40,275 nt of DNA from positions 1 to 40,275 of the forward strand of contig BDIP01000033.1 in NCBI GenBank assembly GCA_003568945.1. Reading direction: 5' to 3'. The DNA comes from Kipferlia bialata (Eukaryota). The notes under the pieces were generated by a model. It did not search any database and was not told the DNA's origin. It saw only the letters and a list, made by a program, of their open reading frames with translations. This document shows, piece after piece, positions 55 through 40,223 of this stretch (position 1 is its first letter; every line of letters starts with the position of its first letter). The position numbers and the translations under genes are program-made.

Positions 55-196
55 TTATATATATTGATCTATATATACCTGCTGGGCACTCAATACCAGT
101 TCGTACAGCTTGTTGTTCAGTCTTATCTATATATATACACCACTAGTCATATACCAAAGACAATATATAGTACATTAGTAGATATCATGAATATAC

Positions 197-3147
197 CTGC
201 TGTGCACTGAGGACCAGTTCGTACAGCTTGTTCTTCTGGGTGCCATTGTCGGGGTCACCGATGTCCCTGGGGATAAATACAAATAAATATATACCATTAA
301 TATATACCACAATATATATATATACTATATACCACAATGTCCCTGATGTCATATATATATAGTACTCATATATATATATATATATATATAAATATGAATA
401 TTTACAAATATATACTGATACTGCCATTGTCGGGGTCACCGATGTCCCTGGGTAACCGTAAACAAATATATGTGAATATCCAAATTGGCGAAATGATTCA
501 TGAATAGAGTCCAAAGATAAGTAGGACATAGACATACGAATGTATTTACCTTGCAATCTGGATGACTAGATATATATATACAAATATATATATATACCAT
601 TAATATATACCATAATATATATACTATATATTAGTCAAAATATGCATACACATATATATACATATATACATATTCCATTGGAAACAATAATATGCTACTA
701 TTAATATTCATATCCAAATATATATACATGCATACCTTGCAATCTGGATGACGGTCTGCTGGGTGAAGGCCTGGAGACAGATCCTAAGGTTAGATTAGAG
801 ATTATATCTGTTCTGATAATATCATACTATTGTTCTAGCAAATAGAACAATTCCATTGTTCTACTTGTCTTTCTACATACACATATATACCGTAGAAATA
901 TATGTACCCGAAAAATATGAATTCTACTCTATCACTCCACACCTGACATGTGCAGGGCAGGGGGGACAGTGCACTATTGTATATATATACATATCATATA
1001 TCACTCTCTCTCAATATATACTATATACCCTATATATACTCTCTACACACTGTATACTATACTCTGTACCTGACCATGTGCAAGGCAGGGGGGACAGGAC
1101 TATCGAATATACATATATGTATATACTCATCTATATAGTATGTATATATATAGAGTATATACTGTCTGTATCTGTCTATATATATAAAATGAATAGTATA
1201 TCAACTGTATAGTATATATATATATATATACATGTACCTGACCATGTGCAGGGCAGGGGGGACTGTGCTGACTAGTACATCTCTCTATCTCTCTATATGT
1301 ATATATATGTATGTATTCTATATATGTGCTGTCTCTCTATATATACACCCCTTACCTGACCATGTGCAGGGCAGGGGGGACTGTGCTGTTGAAGGTGGCA
1401 TCCTGGGGGTGAGAAGTAACATACAATAGTAGTAGTAGTATTTGACTATGGCAACATGGAAAAAGAGTCGAAAAAGAGTCGAAAGAGAGCGAGAGAGAGT
1501 ACGATGAGTAATAAAAATGGTATACATACGAGTATATACACATAGATATATACACACACAGAGTGCCTGTGGGATATATATACCATATTGATACACCAGG
1601 TACTAGAGAGGTTGAGAGGTTGAGATGTGAATACTTGATATGTAAAGATACAAAAAGCATGAATTGTATGTATGACATACATATATATCCACTACCTGTG
1701 GCATGCACAGTGGTATACATACATAAGTATATACATAAATATACACACATATATATATATATATATTAATATATACACATTCAGTACCTGTGGCATGCAG
1801 AGTGGCACCAGGTGGGGCAGGATCTCAAGGCATATCCTGAAGAGTGAGAGGATAGAAGACACGGAGTACAGATACACTGTAATGAATATAGATTACATGT
1901 ATAATACATATACATACAAATACACACACAAATAATACAAGGACATATAGTAGTGAATACATACTAACCTGGCTGGCATTGTCTCCACATACTGGTACAT
2001 GAATACGTAAACACTATACTACGTCTACCATATTCACTACACATAGTAATAGTCTATCGATAATTCTAGATATATCTAACCTGGCTGGCATTGTCTCCAC
2101 ATACTGGTACAGAGTGTATATATATATAATAATAATATATATATGGATATTCATATATAATGAGTTTCATATGTATATTAACCTTGCTGGCATTGTCTCC
2201 ACATACTGGTACAGAGTGCGGGAGGCCTCCTGGGCCTATGGTGAGATGGACAGATACCAAACAATATATATATAATACTATAGCCTGGGCCTGTGGTGAG
2301 ATAGACAGATACAATAATAGTACAGGACAATACAGTATTACTATACTATACTATACTGTTGTAGATATATGTATATATGATGTAAGGTACAGAGTGCGAG
2401 AGGCCTCCTGGGCCTGTGGGTCAGAGGGATGCTAAATAGAACTTAAACATACATTCATAATTGCTAACCCTATGCTTATCACATCGAGAACATACTATTG
2501 ATACACATATGCTACACTGTGCACTACTCACACCTGCCGAAATAGTTATATGGACTCTACAAACCTACACATCTTAGCTACTTACCTTTGCCAACAGTTC
2601 CAGGTGTGATGCCGTTGGTAACTATATGTATACACCCATATATATATGTATACTTCATATGCATTATCTATCATATACCCACCTTCGCTACTAGCTCCAG
2701 GTGTGATGCCGTTGGCTGCTGGCCATTGGAGGCACGGGGCTGGGTGAGATGTTACCGATGATTTATGACAATACATGAAATGCTAACACACATGCCAAAT
2801 GTATGCTGCTGCTTGGAGGCAGGGAGTGCGAGGTACATGTATGCATGTATTGGTATATGAAACAATACCAATAAATATATAGATGAGTGTAACTAACCTG
2901 GTCAATATGCATGTGGAATGCGATCCCCCCATTCCTGTCATCCACTGCTCCAAAGGACACACAGGCCCGGATGGCATCCCGGGCACGCCTAAAGTAAGTC
3001 TATAAGCAATGAATAAGTCATGCATACAGACACACACACATACACACACATATATACATATATAAATAATATACATATTTGACACACAGGCACGGATGGC
3101 ATCCCTAGCACGTCTAAAGGTGAGGGACATACTATATAGGTATACTA

Positions 3148-3182
<35 letters not shown>

Positions 3183-6100
3183 CTGCTCCAAAGGACACAC
3201 AGGCCCGGATGGCATCACGGGCACGCCTAGAATGAGAACTCTACTAATCAACATGGTGAAATGTAATATATACATATAAGTAGATGTACACACATGCCCC
3301 GATGGCACGCCTTGGAGTGAGGGTAGAGTACACCACACTACACTATATGCTTTGAGTATACTATTAATACTATATGACTCTATTGTATGACTCACTTAAG
3401 TACCGCCATGTCTCTGTCGTAGTTGCTGGTGTCCCTGCTGCTGTTGATGAGGTGATCCACAAGCACCTCAATCTCGGCTGGGGTCAGGTGATGTACTCTT
3501 ATACTAACTTTGAGAATTTATAGCTCGAATATACTCGCTGACTATGCAATACCTGCCACATTGGCCAGCTTGAGCCATGCCGATGACATCAAGGGGGCGG
3601 CAACGGGTAGCAGCCTGGTATCAGTATGAGGTGTATATGTATGCAATATATGTACATAAATAGGATTGCTGTATATAGCTGGTTGGAGTCTGAGGGTGAG
3701 CATATGTATCGATACTACTGTATGTATTACACTACAATACCTTGGCTGGAACTGGTGTGTCTCCCTGACCTTGCCCACCAGGATGCAGAAGTGCTCCATA
3801 CACCGGTAACAGGCTAGTGTTAGTATACAAAGAATACAAGTATTCAATAGTATATATGGTATATAGTATGTTGATATACTTATCGGTATGCAGAAGTGCT
3901 CCATGCACCGGTAGCATGCTGGAATTAGATGATGATAAGTGAATATACCATATCACAAATGAGATATAATGCATCAGTATCATTGTATAAAACTCAACTT
4001 CCCATAGGAATGTCACTGCCTGGTTGCCACTTATACAGTTATACACATATATTCTTATATTGGATATGTATACAGGTACCAGTAAACATATGTACTTGTT
4101 ACCTTCCCCCAGGAATGTCACTGCCATATATATATAAATATATAAATACATACATATATATATATATATACATACATATATTTATATGTAATTGGATAGA
4201 CATTCACATAGAATCTATACATATTTATGTATATATGGCCTTTCTTACCTTCCCCTAGGAATGTCACTGCCTGGTTGCGCCTCTTGGGCTGCTTACAGGC
4301 ATGGACCTGGGTTAGATCATTATACAGATTATACAGAGATTTACAGAGTATGTAAAGGCATGGACCTAGGTTAGTACATATACTCAAAGGAAATGACTGG
4401 CACACACATAGAGAACAAGACATACAGTTAGTAGTAGAGAGTACGAACCTGGTTTGTGATCTCGACCATCTCTGCATAGACCCTCTCACTACTAAACCTG
4501 GGGTGGGGGACATAATATACATATCACAAGTACATACTACATATAAATACTATATGAATATGTAATATGGAAACCGCTGAACCTGGGGTGAGGGATCAGA
4601 GAGGTAGAGAGACCGTAATATATGCTATTATGTATCAGTTCCACTTACATTGCGTGCTGCAGACTGATGTCTGCTGATATCCTGGGCTGTACAGCTGACC
4701 CATGTACTATATATANNNNNNNNNNNNNNNNNNNNNNNNNNNNNNNNNNNNNNNNNNNNNNNNNNNNNNNCTATATATATTATATATATATACTTCTATC
4801 TATATATGTCTTACATTGCGTGCTGCAGACTTATATCTGCTGATATCCTGGGCTGCACAGCTGGTACAGCAGCAGCAGTGTTGAAGGCATGGGACACAAT
4901 GTCGGTGCGGCCTACATGTTAGGAATAGAGAAAGAGAGTGTTTAACATGGAATGTACCATAAGTATATATATAATATAGGATACATAATGTAGTGTTGAA
5001 GGCATGGGACACAATGTCGGTGCGGCCTGAGGGTAGGAGAGATTTGACTGTCAAGCAAGTGATATGGGAACGAAGAACCACATGAAAGAATACAGTATAC
5101 ATAGAAAACTCAACGGACACTCACCCAGTATCTGGTAGAGCCCTGCCATCTTGAGGCACATCCTGGCATAGAGGTTGTTGCGGTACGTCCTGGGGTTAGA
5201 TATATAGATAAATAAATCCCGTGGTACAATTATTCAATATAATATATATATAATTATATATTATATATAATTATATATATAGTATATTATTATATATATA
5301 TATTATTATATATATATATTATATATATATTATAGAGGTTGTTGCGGTACGTCCTGGTGTTAGATTAAGTAAACTCATGATAAAGTATCACTTCAACACA
5401 CTACATAAGGTGTATATACTATTAGTAATGTGTTGCGGTACGTCCTGGGGTTAGATTAATAGACAAATCCCATGGAACAATTATTCAATACCACACACAA
5501 TGTATAATAATTAGAATATTGCTTGCTACTATAAAGTTAACTAAAGTGTGTTATGAATATATAGTGAAACATGTATAATATATCCACGTACTTGTTGGCC
5601 AGAGTTGACAGTGCAGCACTGACGTCAATGGGTGCAGTCACCGGATGCTCCTGCTTGACAACAGTCTCTCCCTCGGTAGGGGCAGGGTCGTCCTCCTATA
5701 TGATGAGCACTCAGTATATATATATATACACACAATATATGCAAAGTATACACTATGAGGATGTAATAGTACTTCTTGATATATACAGTTCACAGACCTG
5801 GGCAGACACAGTAATATACATACACACTATTTGTATGTATCACTTCTATATATACAATATATATTATATACAGTGGCTAATTGTCCCACATACCTGAGCA
5901 GACACAATGTGGAGTCGGGACATGGCACCTGGGGTGAGAATACAGGTATATAACTATATATATGTATAAATGATACATACACACACACACACAAACAAAT
6001 GTATAATTATATATATACATGGAACCTGGGGTGATATCTAATTATGTTAATACACCGCTAATAGTAACACTAATCTAAATACATACAATACGCACTGTTG

Positions 6101-6525
6101 AGACTGTGCACTGCATGTTACAGGATACGTACACATATTATATATATGTATATATATATGTGTGTGTGTGTATGTATGTACTGTATATATATATACATAT
6201 AGTAATAATATGAAATATATTTGTATACTACTCTATACGCACTGTTGAGCCTGTGCACTGCCTGCTGGTACATACCGTATACATACTATATATATGGAAT
6301 ATATATACATACATATATATACATCGTAATAGTATCCAATATAATACTATACGCACTGTTGAGCCTGTGCACTGCCTGTTGGTACATACTGTACACATAC
6401 TATATATATGTTTAGATAGTATAATATATATACATATATATAGAGAGAGAGACATATGCTATGCGTACTGTTGAGCCTGTGCACTGCCTGTTGGTACATA
6501 CCGTATACATACTATATATATGGAA

Positions 6526-6556
<31 letters not shown>

Positions 6557-8671
6557 GTTTCCACACATGTATAATGTGTTACGCACTGTTGAGCCTGTGC
6601 ACAGCCTGTTGGTACATAGTATATATATACTATATATATTGTATATATACATGTGTATATATATGTAATATATATATCTAGAGAGAGAGGGAGAGAGATG
6701 GTTCGTACTGTTGAGCCTGTGCACTGCCTGTTGGTGCATATCGTACATATATAGTATATACATATATATATATATATGTTTCATATATATACACTATACG
6801 CACCGTTGAGCCTGTGCACTGCCTGTTGGTACCGGCCACACTCATGGTCGATGGAGGCTAGGGCAATGGTCCTAGGATGAGGCATACACTTCTATATGTA
6901 TACACATATGTATGTATATATGTATAAATACATCAATATATGCATAAGCCAACATATTTGGTCATGATGGTCCATATACACATCCCAATACCTTGCGGGT
7001 ACCGTAGGCTCTGGTACACTGAGGCTGTGACCCATAGGATATATATATATATACATATCAATACCAATATATATATATATATATATTATATACCTTGCTG
7101 GCACAGTAGGCTCGGGCACACTGAGACTGTGCACAAGAGGCACACCAGTACCGGACTGCATGGACACAGTGCGTCCATCCCTCTCTCTCTCTCTCTCCCC
7201 CTGTGCAAGTGGGGTAGTAGCACCGAAGTACCCTGACACCCTGGGGGTGGGGGCACCACTGTCATTGGACATCCTGGATGGTTAGTACAGACTCAAGTCT
7301 ACGATAACGTATATACACATTGCCAATATACGAACCCAATATATGTAGAACAAACTAGTGACAGAATATTGTATACATCCATACATATCCCATAATATAA
7401 TACCCACCTTGACAGTCTGTCCCTCCCGTCAATGAAGAGTCGGTGACGCCAATATATACGTATATTGCTATATACTAGTGCTCGGATATGAGTATGATAC
7501 ACATAGATATGAATACTCATATTTATAGCCCTCAAGTACCTTGACAGTCTGTGCCTCCCATCGGTTGATACTGATACTGATACTGATACTGAATGACTAT
7601 ATATATAATGACTATACATATATAATGACTATATATATACCTATATATTACTATATCCTCATACCTTGACAGTCTGTGCCTCCCATCGGAGAAGTCACCG
7701 GAGCATGTGACCTAGGATGAGTCATCTACATACACACATACAAATCGGACATTGAATATACATGAAGAGCCATACAGAGAAAGAAATACTGGGTATAGGC
7801 ATGGTGGGATGAGAGGGGTAACACGAGTGACATTACACTCATGGAAGAAATGAGAGAGTGATACACTGATATAAAAGAGTGAATATGATCACGTCACTGG
7901 ATCACATAGAGAGAGAGAGAGAGAGTATATCAACCTGGTGTGCCTTTGCGAACTCCAGACAGTTGGACAGGGTGGAGACAGAGGCAGTCAGACTGGGAGT
8001 CAGAATAATACAATGATATATACTATATATACATATATACATATTCATATATATATAGATATTAGGTATATTGAGAAGAGTAGTCTCCAGACAGTTGGAC
8101 AGGGTGGAGACAGAGGAGGTCAGGCTAGGGGTTAGATTAAATCAATGATATATACTATATATATATATAGAGACAGAGAGATATTAGGTATATAAAGACA
8201 GGGTGGAGACAGAGGAGGTCAGGCTGGGAGTCAGAATAATACAATGATATATACTATATATATATTTAGAGACAGAGAGATATTAGGTATATAAAGAAGA
8301 GTAGTCTCCAGACAGTTGGACAGGGTGGAGACAGAGGAGGTCAGGCTGGGGTTAGACTAATACTACACGAAAAGGATCACATATCTACATTTTAGGTATA
8401 TTAAGGAAATTCTGTAGAATATACATATGTGATCGTAAGAAAGTCAGATACGAGGGTAACAGTGATATTGACGAACTATGTATATCATTCTACGCATGTG
8501 AATATGTGTGTATATATGTATGTTGGTACACATGTATACCAACCTCTGATAGGATGGGTGCTGGGGTCCGAGCATACTTGCCCGTTGCACAGTGAGGGAT
8601 AGATCCCTGGACAGAGACTGACACAGAGAGGCTAGGGGGGCATTGCGCCTGGTGTCAGTATACTGATACTT

Positions 8672-8708
<37 letters not shown>

Positions 8709-8782
8709 CTGGCACAGAGAGGCAAGGGGAGCATTGCGCCTGGGGTCAAAATACATACCGTAATGTATCTACATGTATATTT

Positions 8783-8825
<43 letters not shown>

Positions 8826-8899
8826 GGCACAGAGAGGCAAGGGGGGCATTGCGCCTGATATCAGTATGTATGCCGTACTGTATCTACATGAATACTTAT

Positions 8900-8937
<38 letters not shown>

Positions 8938-11625
8938 TATGTTACAGAGAGGCAATGGGGGCATTGCGTCTGGTGTCAGAATGAATCCATGTATAGATGC
9001 AATACCCCACTACTCTATACATTGTCTCAGGCTGCAGCATATGTTGTCAAGGGCCCCAAGAATATGGAGTAGTATATATAGTAAGGTGTATAGTATAGCG
9101 TATATATACATATATACTTATACGGTATTTACCTAGTCCCAGGCAGCACGATGTCGAGTGCCCCCCTTGTGTACTTATAGAGTACATGGTATGTAGTATT
9201 TGTATATTTATAGAATAAACAGGTATATATATGTCCTATGTACCTAGTCTCAGGCCTCAGCATTATATCCAGTGCCCCCCTTGTGTACTGTGCCATCACA
9301 TAGTATGTAGTATATGATTATATATATATATATGTATACTGTATATTCTGACCTTGTTTCGGGTTGTAACATAATGTCGAGTGCCCCCCTTGTGTACTGT
9401 GCCATCACTGACTCAGAGGTCACAGTCTCTCTCTCCCTCTCTCTCTGGCTCTCACCACTCTTCATACTGTTTGCTTCAGGTCCCCACTTGGTCAGATTGT
9501 CAATCATATCAGTAGTGGCAGGACTGTCCAAACCCTCCGCAGGGGGGGAGAGAGAGAGAGCGAACTGGGGGATGGGGGCAGTGCCAGCACTCTCGCGCAG
9601 CTCAGCACTGGAGGGTGAGACATATACACATTCAGTGATATATATCTGATGGTACTACCATAGTACGTACCACATCATCTCTAACGAGTCCCTTCTTCTG
9701 TCTGACCCCAGTTGGGTCAGGGCACATATAGAATAACTACTATATATATATATATAATATACATATATATATATGTGTGTGTGTGTGTGTTATACATATA
9801 TCACATACCACATCATCTCCAGTGAGTCCCTTCTTCTGTCTGACCCCAGTTGGGTCAGGGCCCGGTGAATCAAGTCGCCATACTGGGAGATGGAGGCATA
9901 GCCTGGTGGTAAGACAATGTGGTTGTACTACTGTATGCATGGAATGTGATATCTATAAAACTTCAGATACTATGCCTAGTAGTATTCTGGCAGTATTCTA
10001 GTAGTATTCTTACCACCGTTACTCAACAGTGACACTAAACATGGTGGTCTGATCACACTGGGTCACAATACAATAGTATGTATTGTTGTATATATATAGA
10101 GAGAGAGTATACATATAAATATATGTATATACACTCATACCATCATTACTCAATAGTGACACTGGGCATGGTGTCTGGGAGGCAGTAAAGATAAATATAT
10201 AGAATATACATACTCATAGTATCCTTATACTATTATATATATCCATACCATCATTACTCAATAGTGACACTGGACATGGGGTCTGGGAGGCAGTATATAT
10301 ATACATATAGAATATGTGTATATATACATATATATTCATATATATGCTACACATACCATCATTGCTGAGTAGTGACACTGGACATGGTGTCTGGGAGGCA
10401 GTCGCAAAGGCATGGTCCGTGGCTGGAGGGTTAGAACCATGGTTACACATGTACAATATCAATACTAATACAAGAATTTACAATTTATCATTAACATATA
10501 TGTATGTATATACCATCAATTGCAAAGGTATGGTCAGTGGCTGGAGGAGTAAGAATCTTGTTACACTTCAATAATAACAAGTACACTGTATACAATATAT
10601 AATGTATACCTGTCCACATGTCTATGGTGTGCAGGGCATAACCAACATATCACTGAAAATATAATATGTACACATATATATAATACACATACATATATAA
10701 TATATGTACCTACATATACAAAGATAGGTATATATACATAACATACCTGTCCACATGTCTATGGTGTGCAGGGCATCACCGGCTAGGTTCAGACACAACA
10801 TGGCATTGACCACGGCTGGGAGTTAGTTACTGAATGCTGCTATTACAAACTAGTATACATACTAGATTGTATAGACACATCCATCTACTAATAACCATGT
10901 CAGGTTCAGACACAGCATGGCATTGACTACGGCTGGGGGTGAGCTATAAAGTAACTATGTGGAATATATACTACAGGATCAGACACAATTCCGATGTATT
11001 GTGCAATGTGTCCCACCTCGCGTATCCACCTTGAACCAGATGTCTGCCAGATACATACTCACTAATACGATGTATACACATCCATATGAGGGCAAATATA
11101 CACAACCTGATAAAACACACCTCTAGTGTCCACCTTGAACCAGCTGTCTGCCAAGTGCATAATACATTCATATACATATACACATATATACATGTGTAAC
11201 ACATGTATATATACTAATACTTTATGATATATACATACAGCTACATACCTCTAGTATCCACCTTGAACCATGTGTCTGCCAAGTGCTTGGACATGGTCAG
11301 AATCATGTCCCTGGGGTGAGTGGATTCTGTGTAAATAGTACATATATCATAATAGGGTATATACATGTCATAATAGTATGTCTACCAAGAGGATATATAC
11401 AGTATCCACATATCATATACTATATGCTAAAGACATATACATACCTAGGCATCTCCTGTCCCCCTCTGTTGGGTACATATATCATGATATATCAATGTAT
11501 ATACCTACATATATATATATACATATATGCTACATATATATATACCCATATACCTTGGCATCTGGTGTCTCCTGTCCCCCTCTGTGGGTGTCAGCATCAG
11601 TCTCAGGGTGTGGAGCACAAGGGAT
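197..11625 (-). CDS. 3' portion (27 exons, 3'-incomplete), probably the same gene; weak resemblance to the FAT region of PIKK-family kinases (ATR/ATM/TOR-like)
   Basis: Exons in transcript order: 11554-11625, 11249-11310, 10747-10815, 10357-10422, 9809-9902, 9353-9607, 8544-8648, 7935-7992, 7665-7711, 7094-7273, 6804-6871, 5894-5928, 5592-5695, 5125-5189, 4815-4911, 4449-4497, 4249-4306, 3741-3813, 3553-3614, 3396-3477, 2898-2988, 2683-2739, 2183-2235, 1788-1836, 1356-1402, 736-783, 197-266. Phases chain without stops. Peptides SAWLKLA, VETMPARICLEILPHLV and RICLQAFTQQTVIQI recall the end of the PIKK FAT region. No kinase motifs lie in the window, so the family call is only about 0.35. Confidence shown is for the coding structure. 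Confidence 0.8.
4716..4770. other. Assembly gap (N run) inside an intron
   Basis: 55 Ns flanked by (TA)n. Confidence 1.
5190..5199 (-). promoter_or_regulatory. Representative fused branch point and 3' splice site, CTAACCCCAG
   Basis: Plus-strand CTGGGGTTAG. Variants CTCAC/CTGAC/CTTAC-CCCAG close most introns, with no polypyrimidine tract. Confidence 0.85.
6089..6830 (-). repeat. Array of six donor-side half-exon copies of exon 6804-6871, separated by (TA)n-rich spacers
   Basis: Unit TACGCACTGTTGAGCCTGTGCACTGCCTGTTGGTAC recurs near 6090, 6237, 6350, 6463, 6580, 6703 and in the exon near 6798. Confidence 0.9.
7094..7273 (-). CDS. Internal exon (180 nt)
   Basis: Acceptor CTAACCATCCAG; reads MSNDSGAPTPRVSGYFG...HSLSVPEPTVPA; GTATA donor. 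Confidence 0.85.
9353..9607 (-). CDS. Internal exon (255 nt)
   Basis: Acceptor CTCACCCTCCAG; reads AELRESAGTAPIPQFALS...DSPATTDMIDNLTKWGPE...ALDIMLQPET; GTCAG donor. Confidence 0.85.
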
Positions 11626-12066
11626 CTGAGGTGATTTTAGTATAATTAAGAGCAATATACATATATATGGAATACATGTATGCATACACATATATATAGC
11701 ATCAGTCTCAGGGTGTGCAGGACAAGGGATCTGGTATTATTACACCTATATGCATACATATATATATATATATATATATATGGTGTATATATATAGAGAG
11801 AGATAGTAGATGTTGGTGTCAGCATCAGTCTCAAGGTGTGCAGGACAAGGGACCTAGTATCAGCAATTCATTCTATATCTATCATTCATTCTATATATAT
11901 GGGGAGAGAGAGATGGTATCAGCCTCAGGGTGTGCAGGACAAGGGACCTATATGTAAGACATTTGGAATATATATATATACAGAGAAAGAGATGGTATCT
12001 GTTGGTGTCACCCTCAGGGTGTGGAGCACAAGGGACCTGGTATAAGATACTAAGTCCATATATACC

Positions 12067-12112
<46 letters not shown>

Positions 12113-12256
12113 CTGTTGGTGTCAGTCTCAGGGTGTGGAGCACACGGGACCTGGAATATTAGTCATTTGGTATGAATCAAACATATACGGTAGTACCAGT
12201 CTCAGCGGGGGGGGGGGGGGCATATCTTGATACCGATGTGGAGAACAAGGGGCCTA
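11590..12256 (-). repeat. Array of acceptor-side half-exon copies of exon 11554-11625
   Basis: CTCAGGGTGTG(G/C)AG(C/G)ACAAGGGA(T/C)CT recurs about six times; variants are synonymous in the SLVLHTLR frame. Confidence 0.85.
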
Positions 12257-12343
12257 CAAGTACATGTATATGTATATTGACCACCCAACTTGACACCAGC
12301 AGCACTTGAATCGTAGGAGTGTCCGTATAAGACTTGATATACA

Positions 12344-13144: not shown

Positions 13145-13301
13145 ATATAATTATATTTAATATAAATCCTATTGTATCATTGTATCTTTAGTATATATAT
13201 ACACATATATTAATACCTGCACTGCTGTATCTGCCTCATGCCCCTTGTAATAACATTGTATTCTTATATATATAGATATATATATATACACATATTAATA
13301 C

Positions 13302-18100: not shown

Positions 18101-18135
<35 letters not shown>

Positions 18136-24002: not shown

Positions 24003-24035
<33 letters not shown>

Positions 24036-24074
24036 GACAGGGATGGGAACCCAGTTGACATTGTTCTAGGGTAA

Positions 24075-24114
<40 letters not shown>

Positions 24115-24459: not shown

Positions 24460-24505
<46 letters not shown>

Positions 24506-27500: not shown

Positions 27501-27580
27501 GGTTGGGTCTGGGGCAGAACAGAGAGGGGGCAGAGGGGTTGCCATGCCTGGGGTTAGATATAATATGTATATTTGTAGCT

Positions 27581-27623
<43 letters not shown>

Positions 27624-30600
27624 AGAGACGGGGCAGAGAGGGGTTGCCATGTCTGGGGTTATGAGTATATAAATATATTGCTATGTATGAGGAGAGAGTT
27701 ACACCAATACCTAGTAAATGACATATAGAAAGTCTAATTGTATATCTATAACATAGAGATATCTTACCTGAGTGACGTGTAGACCTGTGATATGAACCTC
27801 AATTGGTTGACAGCTAGGTCAGGGGACATGCCTAAGTTAGTATATATATATATATATATACATGTATAGAGAGAGAGAGATAGAGAGAGAGAGAGAGCAT
27901 GAGCTGGTTGACAGCTAGGGCGGGGGACATGCTAAGGAATACATAGCATGATTATAGTTAAAGATCAATAATAGGGCATTCGTACCTGTCGGCAGAATGA
28001 GTATCCTAGATATGTATAGATATACATATATACATATACATAGAGAGATACATTCATATAACTATATGTAGACAGACAGGTACAGTACCTGTCGGCAGAA
28101 TGAGTCTCCCAGATATAGATAGACATCCATATACATATACATATATATATATATAAATATATAAAGATACATTCATAAAACAACAGGTATATATATATAT
28201 ATACAATACCTATCGGCAGTATGAGTCTGCCAGACTCTCTCATGAGGGCACACACGTTGGTCTCAATGCCTAGCGTCAAGATAATAAACATGTGAACACT
28301 TATGAATATTACAATATACCCTACCTTGAGAACACATCCTTTCATAAGCAGCACAGCCAAATGGATCAGCAGGTACCAGAGGGAGCATGCACAGACCGAC
28401 AGCAAGGAGGGCAAAGGTGGAGTCGACAGGCTCAGTAGAGCCAGACCCGCAGTGCAGGATGGGACTGACCATGGTCTGGGGGGTGAGGTCCATCATGGAA
28501 TAGTACATACATACACTATCAGTCAATGATAATGTGGAATGGACGTATTTGGCGGTCTATGTCCAGTCCCGATGCATTGGAGTACCCCCATCAGTATCAT
28601 AATCAATATATATAAACTCATATGAACGTATGTATGCAAGCACGTATCTATATGCATGTGTACCTGTCTGTCTATGTCCAGTCCCGATGCATTGGAGTAC
28701 AGGCAGAGCAGGATGACCCTGGATGTGAGATAGGTACTACATGTATATATGTACCTACACATGTATATATATATTATCCATATATACTATAGTAATAGAT
28801 AGCATATATCCTATGCATTGGAGTACAGGCAGAGCAGGATGACCCTGGGGTTAGTAGAGGGTACAGGTATATATGTATATGTGTATAATCACCATATATA
28901 CACTGTAGTGACATGTGGTGTATGTAATGCATTGGAGTACAGGCAGAGCAGGATGACCCTGGGGTTAGAGGGAGAGACACGGATACTACAATAAATACAT
29001 ACTAAAACAATATATATTACACTATGTAACTCTGTTAAATCTAAGCATTTTACCTTGCGAGAGAGGTAAGTGCTTGCGCACTTGTGGCGAGCAGGTCTAT
29101 GTGACATGCCAGGGCATACAGGCAGTCGGCCAGGTCGACAAGTGACATGTACTCAGAGGGGGACTCAAGGACCTGCATTGAGGGGGTAGAGAGAGGGGGA
29201 GGGGAGAGAGACTCATATATATTGCCCGTATATGTACTTATTAATTATTAACACTTAACCTGAGTTATATACTGCACCATGTCCACTAGGAATGTGGCCA
29301 GTTCACTTACTGATAGAATATAGCGTATAAACCACTATACAATATTATACACACAACATATTCATATGTATACGTATATAAACGTGTATATACATAGACA
29401 CGTTACCTGTGTTATGTACTGCACCATGTCCACTAGGAATGTGGCCAGTTCACTCAGGGCAGAGTCGGTGTGGGTGGTGTGTCCATCTCCTTGGCTCATA
29501 CTGTGATTAGGATGACTATGGTAATAATGTTAGATTACTGCAAGTATAGGAAGAATACCAGGATTACAATCTGCATGCCCATACCTGACTCCGTCCCATG
29601 TGCACACTATACTTGTACACATACAGAGTATATATACAACTACATATTAGTATGTATATACTATGGTATAGGTATTAGATGCCCACACCTGACCCCGTCC
29701 CATGTGCCACTGAGTCCACCCCTGGGAGTGAGTAATACATATATACATATATATACATATATATATGAATACTATATGTTTATAGATTTCATATATTAAT
29801 AAAGAAATTGATATCATCAGTTTCATGTCCCACTGAGTCCACCCCTGGGAGTGAGTGAGGTTATGAACAGTAATATACATATATGTAAGTTCATGTTCAT
29901 GCGTAGTACAGTGTATATACCTAATATGCGCCAGTGCATGGCATACCCCCTTGGCTGTATCCACCTTGTCACTGGGTCTCTGGCCAACAGAGTCAAACCT
30001 GTATTGTAAGATGTATAATATATATATATAATGAATATTTGTATATATATAATTGTATACGTATAGACCTTGTCACTGGGCCTCTGGCCAACAGAGTCAA
30101 ACCTGGGTTAACCACGTATGTGACACTTCCATGTAATATAAATAAATATATATATATATAGGGACATTGTCACTGGGCCAGAGGCCCCACAGAGTCAAAC
30201 CTGCAAGGTAACTAATGGGGACAAAGAATACTGCTGAATGCACGATTTATGACACTATACTCTAGAGAACATTACTTTGGTGTGTCTCTAATACATCTTG
30301 TGTCCTACCTCCCGTGTATCTGCAGAACCAGTATATGTGTAAATATATATATTGTATACACAAGTATAAATATATATATATATACCTCCCGTGTATCTTC
30401 AGGATCAGTATCCTCAGCGTATAATAGACACAAACACATATATATATTCAAAAGTACATAGTAGAATATGTATATATATATGCAGATACGGTACCTCCCG
30501 TGTATCTGCAGGACCAGTATCCTCAGGGTGGTGAGTCTGAGTGACAGAGAGGGGGCCATGGAGGGAATCTGGGGTGAGATGTAAAACATATGCATATCAA

Positions 30601-33600
30601 TAGAGAGATACATCGAGAGAGAGAGAGATAGAGAAAGAGAGAGAGAGAGAGGGGGCCATGGAGGGGATCTGGGCTGAGAGAACTACTATATAACTATGTA
30701 TAGAGAGGGGGGGGAAGAGGGGGAGGCAGAGAAAGAGAAAGAGAGGGGGGGGGCCATCGAGGGGATCTGGGGTGAGAAGAAAGAATTATATACTTAGATA
30801 GAGAGATACATCGAGAAAGAGAGAAAGAGAGAGATAGAGTGCGAGAGAGGGGGCCATGGAGGGGATCTGGGGTGAGAGAACTACTAAATAACTATGTATA
30901 GCGAGAGGAAGAGAGAGTGGGGGGGCAGAGAGGGAGCCATGGAAGGGAACTGGGGTGAGAACACAAATAAGAACACAAATATTTCTCACTCATATATGAA
31001 TATGTTAGCTAATAGAGAGACAGAGTTGACTATATGGACATACCTCGTTGACCATCCTGATCAGGACATCGGTGGCAGTCTGTGCCTCTCCATCACCAGG
31101 CACCAATGTAGAGACACCTGCAGTACCCCCAGTTCCTCTAGTCCCTATAGTTCCTATTGTCCCCTTGGCCCCTGCAATTAGGGCTTCAAAAATATAGAGA
31201 TAGAGATAATATAGTAAAAATATTTAGGCAATGTATTATATTTTTGAAGCCCTACCAGCAATATCCCTGAACCCCTCATACACAGGGTGTGATGAGTCAC
31301 ACACGCAGAAGTGCACGTGCGATGGGTCGAGGTGGGTCAGTGCACAGAAGCATGCAGTGTATACCGCTATGGTGTCTAAGGGTGCATCGGCAGCCTCCTG
31401 ACTCAGAGAACCATCTACAGAGGACACACCATGGGTGGATGCGTATCTGTACGTGACACTGGAGAGTATGCTGCGGTAGAGGCTACCCCCAACAGCAGCG
31501 TTGGACTTGGATAGTGACTGGACCAGGGTGAGTAAGGGGGAGAGGGCAGTGAGGGTACTCTGCATGGCGTGTGTCAGTATGGGAGACTCTGTCTCAGACT
31601 CTGTCGATGTCTCAATGCACTGGGATATCATGCCCAGGGTCAGGATACATGCCTAGAGTAAGAATACTAATGTATATAAAAGTACAAAAGATAGTGGATA
31701 TATGACACTGGGATATCATGCCCAGGGTCAGGATGCAGGCCTAAAGGTAAGAGATACAGAGGCAATACAACATGTATATATTGTACTACAAACATCAGTC
31801 ACTTATCATGCCCAGGGTCAGGATGCAGGCCTGGTGGTTACTGAGAAGTATATTGAACTGTCATAATACAATTAATGTGGTAATAGTAATACACACCTTC
31901 TCCACTGCTGGATCCCTCTTTCTCTCTCCCTCTCTCTGTCTCTCTCTCTCTCTATATATATCTATATATACGTATACATACTATGCACTGAAATTACCTT
32001 CTCCACTGCCTCTGGACTCAGCAGGCACTGGATCTCCTTGGTCCCACCCTCCATATCAATGTCCACTGCCATTGTGCTCTGATCCTGGTACATAAGGATA
32101 GACACTCCTTAGATATAGACCATATAGACCATATGTATACCTAATAGACCACATATACCTAATGGACCATATATATTGAGTAAATATGACTATCATGCAT
32201 ACCATGGTGCTCTGTTCCATGGATGAGTCGTCAAGCTGCAGCTCCTTGGCCCTGGCAGCCTTCTCCTGGTACATAAGAATAACAGTTGTTATAGTATAAC
32301 AATATAGTATAGTAACACTAATGTAATAAAGCAATACGACATGAATATAGATCCAGCTCCTTGGCACGGGCAGCCTTCTCCTGATGTATAAGATAAGACA
32401 CCATATATAATTACTACTCTAGTACATGAAATACTAAGAACTATATATATATATAGACTGCTCTAGTTCCTTGGCACGTGCGGCCTTCTCCTGGTACATT
32501 AGGGCCATACCCCATAGGAATATATAGTAATATTATACTAAAGAGAATTGTACATGTTTCTCTGTCATATACACTGTACCTCTCTCTCTGTCAGCTCCAT
32601 GTGGACAAAAGATACACATGATCTAAACATATACATATGTATAATACTATCATTCAAAACCATACCGTTATGATATACATGTATATATACGCAATATACA
32701 CTATAGTTGACCTGTCTCTCTGTCATACATACTATACTATATATACTATATATACTATATATATATACTATACTATATACTATGTATATACTATACTATA
32801 TATACCATATATGTATACTGCACCTGTCTCTCTGTCAGTTCCATGTGGACACACGTGAAGGGATGGCATACTAGTACTACTACAACCACATAATTTATAT
32901 ATATAAATATGTAAGATATGAGTATTGGTTACCTCTCTCTCTGTCAGTTCCATGTGGACACATGTGCCACACGCAGACAGCCTAAGGTGAATATTATATA
33001 TTATATTATTATATATTATTTAATTATATATTATTATTATATATTATATTATTATACACGTGCCACAAGCAGACAGCCTAAGGTAAGTATGATGATATAG
33101 TCTAATAACAACAGAATACAATAGAGATGAACTGTTGTCATACACGATAAACACATGTGCCACACGCAGACAGCCTGAGGTGAATGGGATACAGGAACTA
33201 ACACTACAGTATAATAGAAGTCTGTTCATAGAAGAGAGTCTAATAACCACAGAATACGATGGAGTGAACTATTGTCATATACACCATAAACACAAACATA
33301 CCACAATAGGGAGAAGCTCCTGCTGACTGTGTGTGTTGACACAAGAGATGCCGTAAGAGACAACACCCTGGCCATCTCTCTCGTTGGCATCACTCTCTCT
33401 CCCTCTGCTACCCCTTCTCTCTCTCTCTCTCCTTGCCGACTGGCCCTGACAAAGTCAAACGCTGAGACGCTCTCTCCCTCACCCCCACTAGAGAGGGAGA
33501 GAGAGAGAGAGTCCAGCAGGGACAGGGGCAGGGAGTGCAGAACGTGGAGAATGGCTGGGGTAAGAACAGTGTATAGTCACTTCAGATAGATGTATATGAT

Positions 33601-33637
33601 GTACGATACATGGAGGAAGACAGGGAGTGCTGTTGAT

Positions 33638-33669
<32 letters not shown>

Positions 33670-34105
33670 GCAGAACGTGGAGAATGGCTGGGGTGAGGGT
33701 AGATGCCTGTCTCTACTATATTACATATAAATGTGGGTGGGTGGGTATACATGCCACACCTGGATTGGCCCAGACCTCCACCTTGGCACGTATACGCTCT
33801 CTCTCTCTATAAATATATACAAATATATTCTCTCCTTCTCTAAACGTAGTCATATATATGTGAATGACGTGTATATGTATGAATATACTACACTATATAT
33901 GCCATACCTGGGTTGGCCCAGACCTCAACCTTGGCCAGAGACTGCAGTCCAAACCTAGGGTTAAACTATATATGAACATGTAGTATTAAAAACAACTATA
34001 TGTGAAACCTATGTGTTAGCAAAGAGACACGATACATTCACTTTACGGCCAGTGGAGGAAGTATGATATGTATACATATATTGAAATACAATAGGTGGCT
34101 ATGCA

Positions 34106-34148
<43 letters not shown>

Positions 34149-35007
34149 GCATACCTTGCCACCAATGGGGCAATGCTGGATCCGATGGTAAACTATAGTA
34201 ACATTCAGTTATTATATATAATGTTTATTCAATACAACTACATGTGGGTACCTAGCGACCAATGGAGCAATGCTGGATCCGAATGGAGTGGATGGAGTCC
34301 CTGAAACCTCCCCTTCTCTCCCTTCAGCCTGGTATTAGCAAGTAAAATAGAATAAAGAAGAATGGACTGGATATATTATGAATGGACTGGATATGGACAC
34401 TGTAGCATCTCCAGCTGTCCCTGCAGGCTGACAATGAGTACTAATTGTGTATACAGCTGCATATATTGGGAATGTACTGCATATATTGTGAATGGACTGG
34501 CTGGGGACGACGGGACATCGCCATCTCTCCCTGCAGGCTGGTATTAGCACGTCGAATAGAAGAACTATGTATCAAAATTGCATCAGTGATAGAGTATAGA
34601 TAGCAATTATATACAATTTGAGCTTCTTGTATTCAGGTACATACACGCCAACAGTCCTAGGAGAGACACTCGTATCTCTGATCTATGTTACTATATGATA
34701 TATTAATACAACTAATTACTATATATGTACCTTTGCATTTAGATACAGACATGCCACCAGTCCAAGTAGAGTGGACAGGGAGAGAGAGGACTACTGACAC
34801 GTATACTATGTATTAATATATATATATATATAAATATCTAATTACATGTACCTTTCCATTGAGGTACAAGCATGCCACCAATCCTAGTAGAGTGGACAGG
34901 GAGAGAGAGGCAGAGGAGACAGACTGGGGGGCAGACCCAGACGCTAGAAGCCTGAAAGTGAGACAGGCTATACCTCCACATATATATATATATATATATA
35001 TAGATAG

Positions 35008-35044
<37 letters not shown>

Positions 35045-35952
35045 CAGAGGACACGGACTGGGGGGCAGACCCAGAGGCTAGGAGCCTACGGTTAGACGTA
35101 CAGTATACAGACAGTGTCCCAACATCTTGGTAGTCATATGGTCATATTTGAATACTCATATACTTGCATACACAAAAATACACTGTACCTGTAAGCTGCT
35201 GCGTATAGTGATATGACACTCATCTGGTCCAGTCTCACACCATATACACTAATATATTCATAGAACAATACTATGATTGTATTCAGTGAGTGAATACTAC
35301 CGTATACACTGTACCTGTATGCTGCTGCGTACAGTGATATGACACTCATCTGGTCCACACTTTCACCATACACAATAATACAGCTAGAACTATATATATA
35401 GAATATATACATATAGAACTGAATATTTGCAGTGAAAGAACACTTATGTATATACTGTATGTACCTATATGCTGCTGCGTATAGTGATATGACACTCATT
35501 TGGTCCATATCAGCACAGGGCCAGAACACAGACTGCACGGCCTATGCATAAGTCTTTTACTATATATATATATATATTACTATATATATACTGTATATAT
35601 ACTGTATTTGTATGTACGGAACATGTAGTGTTAGTATGAAACTGGAGCAAGGTCAGAAGACAGACTCGGCTCTAGTGTCAGAAATGATACAAGACAATGT
35701 AATATAGAGACAGGGGAGGACTACATATCCACTTGGTGAATGTGTAACTACTTTACCTCTACTAGTGGCCTAGCAACTGTCAGCAGCCTGAGTCCCTCAG
35801 TGTACTCTGCCGCATGGGGGCTCAGGGGGTCAGCAGCGTCAGCTAGAAGGTAAGGGACAATCGTAGTCAAAGTTTTGAATGGAAATCTTGGATTCTATGG
35901 GTGGTCAGTAGACCAGTATCAGATACGGCTCCTAACAGGTGAGACTGTTATG

Positions 35953-35987
<35 letters not shown>

Positions 35988-38900
35988 GATAAGCTCTGTG
36001 CCATAGGATCTGAAGATCGGGTATCTGAAGATACAGATGAATAGTACCAGACATAGTAGAAATCAGGTACATGCACAATATATATGCATACATATGTATA
36101 TATATAACTATACCTTCCTCTGTTGCTACTGGCATTGGCTGCCTTCTGATCAGAACAGACATGCCCTCTAGCCACGGGATGACTGGGATTTAGTATATAA
36201 ATAGACAAGTATATGACTATATATATATATATATATACTTAGCGAACTATGAGCAGACATGCCCTCTAGCCACGAGATGACTGGGAGTACGGGAGAGAGT
36301 ATAGAGACCTGTATATATATATATATATATACGGAGTGAAGTAAGATCAGACATGCCCTCTAGCCACGGGATGACTGGGATTTAGTATAGAAAGAGAGAC
36401 GTATATGGATATATAGACGGAGTGAAAAATGCTGACATGCCCTCTCGCCAGCGGATGACTGACAGTTAGTATACACAGTAGTATACATATACACATGCCA
36501 GGAATGTATACTGGGAGAATGGGTTGCATACCTGCATGGAGGTTATTATATAGATGCACTGTATATGGATATGCACACTATTGGTATACTGTATATACTA
36601 CCCTACCTGTCTGGATGTTGTTCTTGCCCCCTGACAGCACTAGGAGAGCACCCAACTCCATGAGGACCTATTGGGTGAGAGATAGAGGCATACATCGTCG
36701 TATTTACGATAATTAGCAATATATGAATGGGTATACCTCCTCTATGTACCCCTGTGTGTGGCAGTACCCAAGGTGTATATATATACTGATACATACAACA
36801 ATGAATATATACATACATACTCATACATATACACACCTCCTCCCTGTACCCCTGTGTGTGGCAGTACTCACTGTGACCAGACATCTGCTCTCGGGGGTCC
36901 TCGGGTAAGACAGACACATATATGATAAGACAGACACATGTACTAAATAAACACTAAGACATAGGGACAATATAGGGGAAAGGGTGACACATCCATAATA
37001 TACACAAATAATTACAATCATATATATATACATATTGAGAGAGAGAGAGAGAGGGAGTGGGAGAGTATATACACCTTTGTCACCACCCTGGCAGGAGGGC
37101 GAGAACATATATAGTAAAAATGTCCACTTGAATACATATATGGACAGAGAGAGAGAGAGAGAGAGAGAGAACATATACATGCCTTTGGAACTACTCTGGC
37201 AGGAGGCAGGTCCCCGACAATCATAGACAGACCGGCCTGGAATTAGGGGTGTAGAAGGAGAGAGAGAGATACATTGTGTATATATATATATACCAAAACA
37301 CCCTGATAACACATATGAGAGAAAGAGAGAACTTCAACGTGTCAGTAAGTGGTGCAGTGTGGGGCACACTCATCAGACTATATATATATATATATATATA
37401 ACAATAATACAATAATATATGTAATACATATCCCAGATTCCTCAGATGGCAATGATAGACTGAGTGACAAGGCTAGGCATGCTAGTAATGGTGCAGTGTG
37501 GGGGGCACACTCCTCAGACTATATATACATATATATACATATAATAATATATATATGTATATATAATATAAGATGTATAACATACCCCTGACTCCTCAGT
37601 TGGCAGGGATAGACTAAGTGACAGTGCTAGGCATGCCAACAGGGGTGCAGTGTGGGGGGCACACTCCTCAGACTATATATATATATATATATATATATAA
37701 TAATAATATATAAATATGTATGTATATATATAATAATACATATATAACATACCCCAGACTCCTCTGTATGGAGTGACAAGCTTAGGGATAAGGCTAGGCA
37801 TGCTAGTAATGGTGCAGTGTGGGGGGCACACTCCTCGGGCAGTCTGCCAGCCAGGAGGTCACCACCTTTAAGGTTCCTAAGGGTTAGTCTAAAATAGTCT
37901 GAAAGTGTATGTGATATATATAAATATATATATATACTCCTCGGGCAGTCTGCCAGCAAGGAGGTCACCTCATTTCAGATTCCTAAGAGTGTAAGAATCA
38001 TTAATATCTCTTATACCATATTCACAATAGCTACCTTGGCGACTTGAGCACTGCCTCCCGTGGGAGTATGAGAGGGTCGAGTAGAGCATATGTAATATAC
38101 TGTACACACAATATATATATATATACCTAGGTAACTTAAGTACTGCCTCCCTTGGCAGTATGACAGGGTCCAGTAGGGCATCCTCCCCCTTGACAGTGCG
38201 GATGGCAAGGTCTAAGGGGTAAGGAAGGATATATAGTACTTAATAAGTACATATATAGTATATATATATAGTACATATATATATGTGCGCAAATATATAT
38301 TTCAATTGAAGGGCATCCTCCCCCTTGACAGTGCGGATGGCTAGGGCTACAGTTAATGGTATATATAATATATATTATACATGTATATATAGCTAGGTCT
38401 AGAGAGTGAGAAAGGATGTATAGTATATATAATACATATACATATATATGCGTGTGTGTAAATATATATATATATATGTATTGAAGGGCATCCTCCCCCT
38501 TGACAGTGCGGATGGCTAGGTCTAGAGAGTAAGAGAGGATATATAGTATTTAATAAGTACAAATTATAGCATATATACGGTACATATATATATGTGCGCA
38601 AAAGTATATATATATAAGGGCATCCTCCCCCTTGACAGTGCGGATGGCAAGGTCTAGAGAGTGAGGGGAGATGGTATATGTATCAGGACATTCAGATGTG
38701 GAAAACTGTGAGTGGTTGGGTGTAGGTGCAACATATGCGTTCCCTTGACAGTGTGGGTGGTCAGAGGTATGATATCAATGGAATGTATCCATGTATACTG
38801 TCAATACCACCATATATACTGTGAACACTACTACTATTACTATACTGTGACCACATGGTCATACCTCTGAGTGCCCTGATGAGTATGACAGGGGGTATGT

Positions 38901-39331
38901 CCATGGCAGACACAAGGACCTGGGTAAGAGATATGAATAGATAACAATAATACATTATGGTATCAATATATATATATATATATTGATAAATATATACATA
39001 ATGTACGTAGTGTGACTGGGGGTATGTCCATGGAAGACACAAGGACCTGGGGTAAGAGATACATACGAATAGATACATGTACATGTATTTGAATAGATGT
39101 AAATGTATATATTTGTATATACTGGGTATGTCTATGACAGATTCTAGGGTCTGAAGGGTGAGAGAGTGGCATATACAACTGAATACTATGTTAAACAGCT
39201 ATTTACACATATCAATACACTATATAGATACATATATACTATAGAGATACATATATGTATACACTACCTTACACGCCTCGACCTCTTGGGTGAAGTCACA
39301 CTCTATAGTATCGCATCCTACGATACCCATA

Positions 39332-39374
<43 letters not shown>

Positions 39375-40091
39375 GGTGTGGGTGTGTGGGGGTGTACCTT
39401 GCACGCCTCGACCTCTTGGGTGAAGTCACCCGGTCCAGACAGGGCAGAGGTATTAGACAGACGGCCTAGAATGAGAAGTATACATCAATATATATATATA
39501 TATATATATACGTGTGTAGAGGGAGAGAGAGAATACTGGACCCGACAGGGCGGAGGTATTAGACAGACGGCCTAGAATGAGATACATATGCATAGAGAGA
39601 GAGAGAGTAGGACTAGAGTGAGACTAATACTATATAGACACTGGTCCAGACAGGGCAGAGAGAGAGAGTTGGAGAGACGGCCTGGGATCAATACTATACA
39701 GGCACACACACACTACTTCTATATACTTGTCAGCCAGTAGGGAGAGAAATACTATGGTATATATATATATACCATAATAGTGAATACTATATGATATGCC
39801 TGCGAATAGCAATGCCCTTGCCACATACTTGTCAGCCAGGAGGGAGGGCAGCGTGGTCACAAGCCTAGGGTGAATGACCCCAGAATCCAGGGTGGATAGA
39901 AACAAAGAGAGAGAAAGAGAGAACTATAGAGAGGAATGGGCGTGATATACGAGAAGAGAGGTGGGTCAGAATAGGACTCGAGTGTAAATTATTATACCTT
40001 CTGAACAGTGTTGGACTGCACTTGATGATCCTCCTGACATTCTGCTCGATGGAGAGGAGGTTGTTGGCATAGACACTCTCCTGGAGACCAC
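13302..40091 (-). CDS. 5' portion (62 exons, 5'-incomplete) of a very large multi-exon gene; helical-repeat-like hypothetical protein, possibly the N-terminal HEAT region of a PIKK
   Basis: Hand-spliced exons with matching phases and no in-frame stops, in transcript order: 39998-40091, 39800-39864, 39398-39465, 38865-38919, 38127-38211, 37753-37876, 37183-37236, 36837-36899, 36607-36667, 36114-36182, 35757-35842, 35465-35541, 34852-34951, 34252-34328, 33908-33954, 33302-33554, 32933-32981, 32203-32265, 31998-32084, 31256-31652, 31044-31171, 30495-30568, 29921-29998, 29689-29721, 29407-29500, 29054-29172, 28664-28718, 28325-28475, 28210-28269, 27768-27831, 27465-27547, 26894-26956, 26622-26689, 25828-25912, 25580-25643, 24892-25052, 24312-24406, 23618-23692, 23383-23432, 22830-22917, 22644-22690, 22187-22273, 21633-21747, 21245-21300, 20661-20764, 20406-20485, 19848-19905, 19337-19426, 18966-19029, 18562-18624, 17982-18076, 17559-17638, 16853-16929, 16497-16581, 16287-16366, 15918-16014, 15601-15657, 15307-15405, 14903-14967, 14040-14171, 13608-13709, 13302-13382. 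Exons are GC-balanced islands in AT-rich introns; synonymous variation in intronic copies independently confirms the frame. Product identity is inference. Confidence 0.85.
14140..14726 (-). repeat. Array of acceptor-side half-exon copies of exon 14040-14171
   Basis: CATGTCGACATCACCAGAGGT.G..GCACTG..GTTAG recurs five times between 14259 and 14726. Confidence 0.85.
23660..24147 (-). repeat. Array of five acceptor-side half-exon copies of exon 23618-23692, separated by (GA)n
   Basis: Unit GGATGGGRACCCAGTTGACATTGTTCT plus acceptor/branch motif repeated near 23775, 23840, 23955, 24040, 24115. Confidence 0.9.
31179..31254. mobile_element. 76-bp non-autonomous TIR element (hAT-like MITE / Introner) forming an 84-nt spliceosomal intron
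   Basis: Perfect 18-bp inverted repeats TAGGGCTTCAAAAATATA (31179-31196) and TATATTTTTGAAGCCCTA (31237-31254). Flanking 8-bp direct repeats CCTGCAAT (31171-31178) and CCAGCAAT (31255-31262), 7/8 identical. An 8-bp TSD and YAGGG termini are typical of the hAT superfamily. Confidence 0.8.
31256..31652 (-). CDS. Largest internal exon (397 nt) of the minus-strand gene
   Basis: Acceptor CTTACTCTAG; open frame ACILTLGMISQCIETS...YEGFRDIA; GT donor at 31254-31255; overlaps ORF 31236..31631. Confidence 0.9.
33302..33554 (-). CDS. Internal exon (253 nt) with SL/ER low-complexity patches
   Basis: Acceptor CTTACCCCAG; reads ILHVLHSLPLSLLDSLSLSLSSGGEGESVSAFDFVRASRQGEREREG...; GTATG donor. Confidence 0.85.
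33639..33669. repeat. (GATT)n tetranucleotide microsatellite
   Basis: About seven tandem GATT units in an intron. Confidence 0.9.
38175..38755 (-). repeat. Array of acceptor-side half-exon copies of exon 38127-38211
   Basis: AGGGCATCCTCCCCCTTGACAGTGCGGATGGC recurs near 38310, 38485, 38618 plus a remnant near 38742. Confidence 0.85.
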
Positions 40092-40223
40092 CTGACAATA
40101 AGGGGCTAGAGAGAGAGAGAGAGAGAGAAAAAGAGAGAAAGAGAGAGGGAGAGACAGAGAGAGCAAGGGGGAGGGGTTGTTGGCATACACACTCTCCTGG
40201 AGACCACCTGATAATGAGGGTAA

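Follow-up and report, generated by a model that had tools for sequence, protein, structure and literature searches.

Intronic half-exon copies that differ from their exons as coding sequences do in a gene of Kipferlia bialata

Contig BDIP01000033.1 of Kipferlia bialata (assembly GCA_003568945.1), which was analysed over its full length of 40,275 nucleotides (nt) and is referred to below as the window, raises the question of how DNA that should be spliced out can have diverged in the manner of protein-coding sequence. K. bialata is a free-living fornicate for which the main text of the genome paper reports 124,912 introns (PMC5874029). The window holds one gene on the minus strand, most introns of which carry partial copies of the neighbouring exons. 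A preliminary description, made from the letters alone, had reported near-pure synonymous divergence between eight such copies and their exons; all 8 pairs were reproduced on the minus strand, with 55 synonymous and 7 non-synonymous changed codons. Across the 167 copies catalogued here, a strong synonymous excess was found (324 synonymous, 142 non-synonymous and 4 stop changes), whereas the purity was overstated by the hand-picked set.

Half-exon copies and their divergence from the exons

The gene was modelled by hand from splice signals as 89 exons (median length 74 nt, 7592 nt summed), which join into 2530 codons with zero stops and span the assembly gap in frame. Donors are GT in 87 exons and GC in 2, and a branch-point motif lies a few bases upstream of AG in 77 of the 89 true acceptors. 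A profile search with exon 20 led to the public K. bialata protein KIPB_000304, which is identical to modelled exons 18-89 across 2055 residues; therefore, the reading frame behind all counts agrees with an outside annotation. Each exon was then compared with its two flanking introns by a frame-blind scan, and 200 hits were kept, of which 73 carry a donor, 94 an acceptor and 33 no splice dinucleotide; 5 low-complexity hits among these 33 were dropped and 28 were analysed. The main features are as follows.

197..40091, minus strand: gene of 89 modelled exons, stop-free and open at both window ends
12344..13144, no strand: assembly gap (N) in intron 62, with exons 62 and 63 in frame across it
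79..40207, minus strand: 167 half-exon copies with one splice site each, 73 donor-side and 94 acceptor-side

That most introns carry copies was borne out, since splice-site-bearing copies occur in 68 of the 88 introns and copies of any kind in 73. They are 12-84 nt long (median 32) and cover a median of 44% and at most 81% of the exon, so that, as had been stated, a copy never has both splice sites. A unit combines an exon edge about 32 nt long with an intact splice signal and roughly 80 nt of intron sequence (the median spacer is 80 nt); units are stacked beside their own exon, donor copies always coming before acceptor copies within an intron. Identity drops to about 0.2 past the inner end, i.e., the copies end sharply. 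Each copy adds about 83 nt of intron, and copies explain most of the intron length variation here (r=0.89). Scanning against non-adjacent introns yielded 16 raw hits, mostly CT-rich, versus 257 for adjacent ones, and a second, fixed-window detector run at six thresholds yielded 140-184 hits versus 0-7 in shifted-intron controls. The layout had been thought undescribed, but copies of exon-intron boundaries are known as amphioxus 'mirages', for which the main texts of two papers give Adh3, the globins BflGb6 and BflGb9, troponin C and PGBD5 as examples (PMC3087553, PMC3902484).

Two copies with marked synonymous divergence are the following.

37586..37669, minus strand: longest copy, comprising the last 84 nt of exon 6 (37753-37876) and its donor, with 13 synonymous codons and 1 non-synonymous codon changed
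13904..13956, minus strand: donor copy of the exon 60 end, with 7 synonymous and 0 non-synonymous codons changed

A spectrum-preserving permutation null (1000 permutations) gave 133 +/- 10 synonymous changes with a maximum of 166, against which the observed 324 can be judged. The ratio of non-synonymous to synonymous divergence (dN/dS) was 0.130 for the 167 copies, with a bootstrap confidence interval (CI) of 0.099-0.174, far from 1 in this gene; it was 0.117 after end trimming (158 copies) and 0.095-0.19 with the fixed-window detector across its six thresholds. The nearest donor copies gave 0.059 and the 28 copies without a splice dinucleotide 0.30. First-position synonymous swaps, to which attention had been drawn previously, were present in 26 distinct cases. 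The non-synonymous changes were mildly conservative (mean BLOSUM score -0.18 vs -0.50, p=0.012), the 4 stop codons represent a weak deficit (null mean 10.5, minimum 3), and 7 of 17 indels were multiples of three. Divergence varied widely, with 24 of the 167 copies identical to the exon and 8 having a proportion of synonymous differences (pS) of 0.6 or more. It was also noticed that two acceptor copies of exon 63 (12008-12150, minus strand) have a 6-nt in-frame indel relative to the exon, as in coding alleles.

Copy and exon thus differ in the way that two coding sequences would, a pattern that neutral decay cannot produce. Duplication followed by decay predicts a dN/dS of 0.5 or more, because the exon gains only silent changes and the copy both kinds, and simulations of that process gave 0.50-0.59, in agreement with the earlier view that neutral decay is inadequate. 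A plain mirage, in which ordinary tandem duplication is followed by neutral decay whether or not the exon converts the copy, would match the layout, and a few arrays (exons 38, 69 and 70) are whole-unit repeats; however, it also requires dS to rise with age, and with a threshold-robust dN/dS of 0.13 and the flat dS described below we consider it very unlikely.

Position in the stack and decay

Several exons are accompanied by more than one copy.

37432-37515, minus strand: second copy of exon 6, GT lost
34490-34537 and 34380-34427 (34380..34537), minus strand: two old, strongly diverged acceptor-side copies of exon 14
27021..27402, minus strand: exon 31 (27465-27547) stack of four donor-side copies with individual intron starts
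25863..26329, minus strand: exon 34 start and four acceptor-side copies, with four-gamete-incompatible site pairs
23766..24137, minus strand: exon 38 (23618-23692) array of five acceptor-side copies, resembling a minisatellite more than any other
14258..14715, minus strand: five acceptor-side copies of exon 60 (14040-14171)
6096..6735, minus strand: six donor-side copies of exon 73 (6804-6871)

When copies were grouped by distance rank from the exon (95, 41 and 31 copies), dS was flat (0.340, 0.318 and 0.304), whereas dN climbed (0.030, 0.053 and 0.074); for the deepest copies, the upper CI limit of dN/dS was still 0.34. In 41 arrays, the farthest copies had 75 non-synonymous differences and the nearest 32 (p=0.001), and the farthest were also shorter (30 vs 35 nt). 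Flat dS combined with rising dN suggests that copies were born already diverged and decayed afterwards. Changes private to one copy had a ratio of non-synonymous to synonymous differences (pN/pS) of 0.43 overall and of 0.56 where arrays had at least three copies, and therefore the copies look unselected once in the intron. Hence, the proposal that they evolve as if coding stands for their difference from the exon, but not for their later fate. Among non-synonymous changes, those from guanine or cytosine (GC) to AT outnumbered the reverse (31 vs 16), while synonymous changes did not show this (82 vs 103; p=0.009), as expected for decay in an intron of 35% GC. The simplest reading is one of two phases, a silent offset of about 0.3 at birth followed by brief neutral decay.

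Simulations, which are caricatures with a star-like allele pool and without population-level selection, reproduced this pattern only when copies were drawn from an allele pool; three such settings gave a dN/dS of 0.11-0.24 with the observed trend, the best of them with dS of 0.36, 0.37 and 0.36 and dN of 0.040, 0.050 and 0.063. In all 8 clonal settings the ratio was 0.38-0.59, and it was 0.38-0.57 in the six in which copies were promoted to the coding place. These clonal values bear on the idea of cassettes cycling within one chromosome lineage, in which copies and exon edge would swap in place, selection would remove failed swaps and thereby keep the copies fit for coding, and no foreign donor would be needed. 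The mosaic look of the units (see below) is in its favour, as are the splice signals, which are mostly kept (branch-point motif in 78 of 94 acceptor copies vs 77 of 89 true acceptors), and the main text of one amphioxus paper describes mirages as unstable and thought to exchange unequally (PMC3087553). However, private changes look near neutral, and by simple arithmetic purging at the population level would need a population mutation rate so high that alleles would be hyperdiverse anyway. In addition, a deletion joint was absent from the DNA contigs over 1068 bases, in which rare forms are dropped. Cycling in place, one of three origins offered earlier, is therefore rather unlikely given the simulated ratios.

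Source of the copies

Among the origins offered earlier, the capture of diverged allelic exon ends by recombination fits best. On balance, exon-anchored, out-of-register recombination between highly diverged homologous chromosomes probably stacks former coding alleles in the introns. With introns diverging rapidly, good homology between chromosomes of different lineages would survive only in exons. A mid-exon break or strand invasion would then copy the partner's exon edge together with its splice signal and about 80 nt of intron start, and resolution out of register, at microhomology in TA runs or at an older copy, would leave the edges of both alleles in tandem, either one keeping the coding place and the other adjoining it in the intron. 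Repeated events would push older edges deeper, where they would decay neutrally. Selection would purge whole-exon duplications, and a splice site on its own would be ignored because it has no partner; this would account for both the half-exons and the donor-then-acceptor order. Such a process requires silent diversity near 0.2-0.3 among the recombining chromosomes. Dmc1 tolerates mismatches. Fornicates are without Ku and Rad51 but have retained paralogues of Dmc1 and, at least in part, the alternative end-joining pathway (PMC8516963), a repair set that would fit the mechanism.

The anatomy of the copies points to exchange inside the exon part, and the copies look mosaic. Of 40 near-identical copies (25 nt or longer with at most one difference), 7 have an intron flank related to that of the exon, the rest being bordered by another intron start or end that brings its own splice signal, and 19 of all 167 share the splice-side flank with the exon; the copies are therefore not fresh self-duplications. 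Between copies, the splice-side flank is common to 14 of 124 pairs, and the inner breakpoint to 36 (null mean 17, maximum 31), these 36 sharing only the junction flank in 15 cases, only the splice-side flank in 3 and both in 4. The exon 73 array illustrates this with two spacers that have an identical 30-nt junction flank but unrelated intron starts. Divergence peaks beside the splice site (donor side, 0.137 falling to 0.063; acceptor side, 0.139 vs about 0.085), as expected if exchange is centred in exons, and the peak was matched by 0 of 300 trimming controls. Four-gamete conflicts were found in 7 of 15 cases, and flank similarity showed no correlation with pS or pN. Flanks of different exons scored 16 or more in 0 of 29403 pairs in this window, compared with 7 of 291 for the same exon, and thus no mobile intron is involved within the window. 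Where an exon has copies on both sides (23 exons), acceptor copies often end near donor-copy starts around mid-exon (e.g., 34/36, 48/46, 40/42 and 27/29), which hints at a preferred break or exchange zone.

The layout was compared with contigs from two runs of one sample over positions 20300-21367 (1068 of the 40275 bases), contigs being a form of data in which rare forms are hidden. The features concerned are given below.

20298..20432, minus strand: exon 46 donor copy, spacer and exon end, corresponding to one 135-nt DNA contig by a span deduced from its length
20406..21300, minus strand: exons 44, 45 and 46, joined in an 8309-nt spliced contig that skips the copies

The 135-nt DNA contig matches the exon 46 end at both of its ends and, judging from its length, comprises the exon 46 copy, the spacer and the exon end (20298-20432). 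It had a depth of 374 versus 369 for unique sequence, with shared 31-mers at 750 and 650, about double; therefore, copy and exon lie in tandem at full depth and are not alternative alleles, consistent with the proposed tandem layout. Concatenation of the alleles of a heterozygous culture by a short-read assembler would be conceivable, as the published assembly is described in the main text of its paper as short-read (PMC5874029), the window has N gaps, and run X1 may be the source sample, so that the comparison tests the assembly and not a second isolate. However, the 135-nt contig was assembled separately and spans copy, spacer and exon end at single-copy depth, and no assembler explanation accounts for a median copy of 32 nt, up to six different units per array and rank-dependent decay; an artefact is hardly credible.

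The second run, X2, was presumed to be RNA although it is not recorded as such, and its contig proved spliced. In this 8309-nt contig, exons 44, 45 and 46 are joined without any differing letter, and its loose ends correspond to the genuine end of exon 43 and start of exon 47. It carries the exon's own version at all 5 informative edges, where a copy with a splice site differs from the exon (the ends of exons 43 and 44 and the starts of exons 44, 45 and 47). The spliceosome thus passes over consensus splice sites that lie no more than about 100 nt from those in use. The third origin offered earlier, in which copies would join the mRNA unconventionally by template switching, trans-splicing or recursive splicing and be under direct coding selection, gained no support from the single spliced contig inspected. 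It would account for low dN directly, fornicate splicing is called unusual in the main text of PMC6679479, and assembled contigs hide minor forms; on the other hand, an in-register GT/GC..AG route exists in only 28 of the 167 copies, 2 of them with a branch-point-like motif, dN goes up and length down with depth, and 28 copies have lost the splice dinucleotide. We give this reading little credence.

As a second allele was not seen, the donor chromosome is deduced. Its place could be taken by a diverged paralogue or homeologue (from an ancient hybrid, a genome duplication or a lost second gene copy) with the recombination step unchanged; a single diverged partner genome would yield a flat dS of about 0.3, and a living second allele would not be needed. 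However, the silent patterns and intron starts vary within stacks (exons 31 and 34, for example, have four each), and the gradual rise of dN with rank, together with the spread from identical copies (24 of 167) to those with a pS of 0.6 or more (8), is more like many donors over time. Moreover, no second gene copy was found at 85% likeness over exons 44-46, and a protein search returned only KIPB_000304 itself and one repeat-rich chance match. A paralogous donor is therefore unlikely.

Several points weigh against recombination between diverged homologues. Over the 1068 bases, the DNA contigs showed no second allele and no other letters, with exon 45 unbranched. A second allele was not seen elsewhere either, the scan of metagenome contigs for relatives having given 269 pattern matches with 0 confirmed and the sequence cluster of KIPB_000304 having 1 member. 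Silent diversity of 0.2-0.3 would be at or above the top of the range known for eukaryotes. Sex is not observed in metamonads according to the main text of PMC8516963. The evidence comes from one gene, and the supporting simulations are as simplified as stated above. The breakpoint-sharing pairs are not independent, exons 38 and 73 supplying 12 of the 36; the 7 of 15 four-gamete conflicts could reflect recurrent mutation, and fast microsatellite slippage alone could erase flank similarity.

The gene, known systems and implications

A number of observations concern the gene itself. Upstream of the public annotation, which begins at exon 18, lie 17 additional in-frame exons (32933-40091, minus strand, about 475 codons), and by its coordinates the spliced contig extends at least 635 nt beyond the annotated start. 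It also continues about 1500 nt past exon 89, and the gene therefore runs off the left end of the window. The two GC-AG introns follow exons 2 and 7 (39799 and 37182, minus strand); exon 7 itself has a GC donor while its donor copy has GT, and thus alleles may differ in donor type. GT directly follows 6 of the 94 acceptor copies, near chance, and 42-nt acceptor copies followed by GT at 30061-30102 and 17009-17050 (minus strand) are possible in-frame extra exons, absent from the annotated protein. Pfam gave no match at useful E-values for 24 exon peptides or KIPB_000304, and a PDB search gave no match. An Atlas search returned weak leads only, with Tra1_central at rank 13 as a weak lead for exon 20, and no lead for the C-terminal exons (197-5695, minus strand), which may resemble the FAT region of TRRAP/Tra1.

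The closest known system is that of the amphioxus mirages, which are likewise tandem copies of exon-intron boundaries on the donor or acceptor side with AG/GT mostly kept and splicing undisturbed, in a host described as highly heterozygous in the main texts of PMC3087553 and PMC3902484. The Kipferlia copies share these traits, lying beside their own exon on both sides, mostly with GT/AG, and being skipped in the one contig examined over the 1068 bases. However, amphioxus mirages are reported from individual loci, where whole units with 81-100% identity form minisatellites that evolve in concert (PMC3087553, PMC3902484, main texts), whereas here 68 of 88 introns are involved, most intron portions show no relationship, and the exon portions have a dN/dS of 0.13 with flat dS and rising dN. 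Since similarity of whole units fails, the Kipferlia copies have the mirage layout but are not ordinary mirages. The mirage mechanism is called unclear in the main text of PMC3087553, the word 'synonymous' is absent from the main texts of both papers, and 'duplicat' and 'tandem' are absent from that of the K. bialata genome paper (PMC5874029). Searches of the open-access literature brought up neither a description of flat dS paired with climbing dN nor one of allele capture. The layout is thus already named, and the evolutionary signature seems undescribed.

Other systems are similar in part. In the hypervariable fungus Schizophyllum commune, recombination of very divergent genomes likewise favours exons, which retain identity tracts and to which 51 of 71 crossovers map, but in the main text of PMC4209137 these crossovers are in register and no stacked exon edges are described. 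Internal gene duplication with intron gain (PMC3265369) likewise duplicates splice-signal-bearing sequence inside a gene; in that case the sites of the duplicate make a new intron, whereas the Kipferlia exon count does not grow and that route, an in-register donor plus acceptor, exists in 28 of 167 copies, or in 2 of 167 with a branch-point-like motif. Mutually exclusive or tandem duplicated exons have both splice sites per copy, unlike the copies here, with one splice site and at most 81% of the exon. Introner-type mobile introns have intron sequence common to unrelated positions, unlike the different-exon flanks of this window (0 of 29403 pairs similar). The silent cassettes of Borrelia vlsE, Neisseria pilS and trypanosome VSG are partial unexpressed copies that stay coding-like via exchange with an expressed site and diversify surface proteins; unlike these, the Kipferlia changes are silent or mildly conservative (dN/dS 0.13) and the copies lie inside the gene's own introns.

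Spliced-out DNA with a coding signature requires a history in the coding position. It is quite possible, though we stop short of calling it probable, that Kipferlia continually rebuilds its exon-intron junctions via exon-anchored recombination of hyperdiverse chromosomes, each intron being a time-ordered stack of retired alleles. Because units explain most intron length variation, the process may drive intron growth in this intron-rich fornicate. If the donors are alleles, one genome would reveal population diversity and recombination between chromosomes in a group in which sex is unobserved (PMC8516963, main text). A single genome would then be a population sample of past alleles and would give evidence of sex or parasex, with silent diversity near 0.3, in a fornicate. 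It would also provide a general, testable origin for mirages in highly polymorphic species, with the prediction that mirages have a low dN/dS and a dS that follows the heterozygosity of the host.

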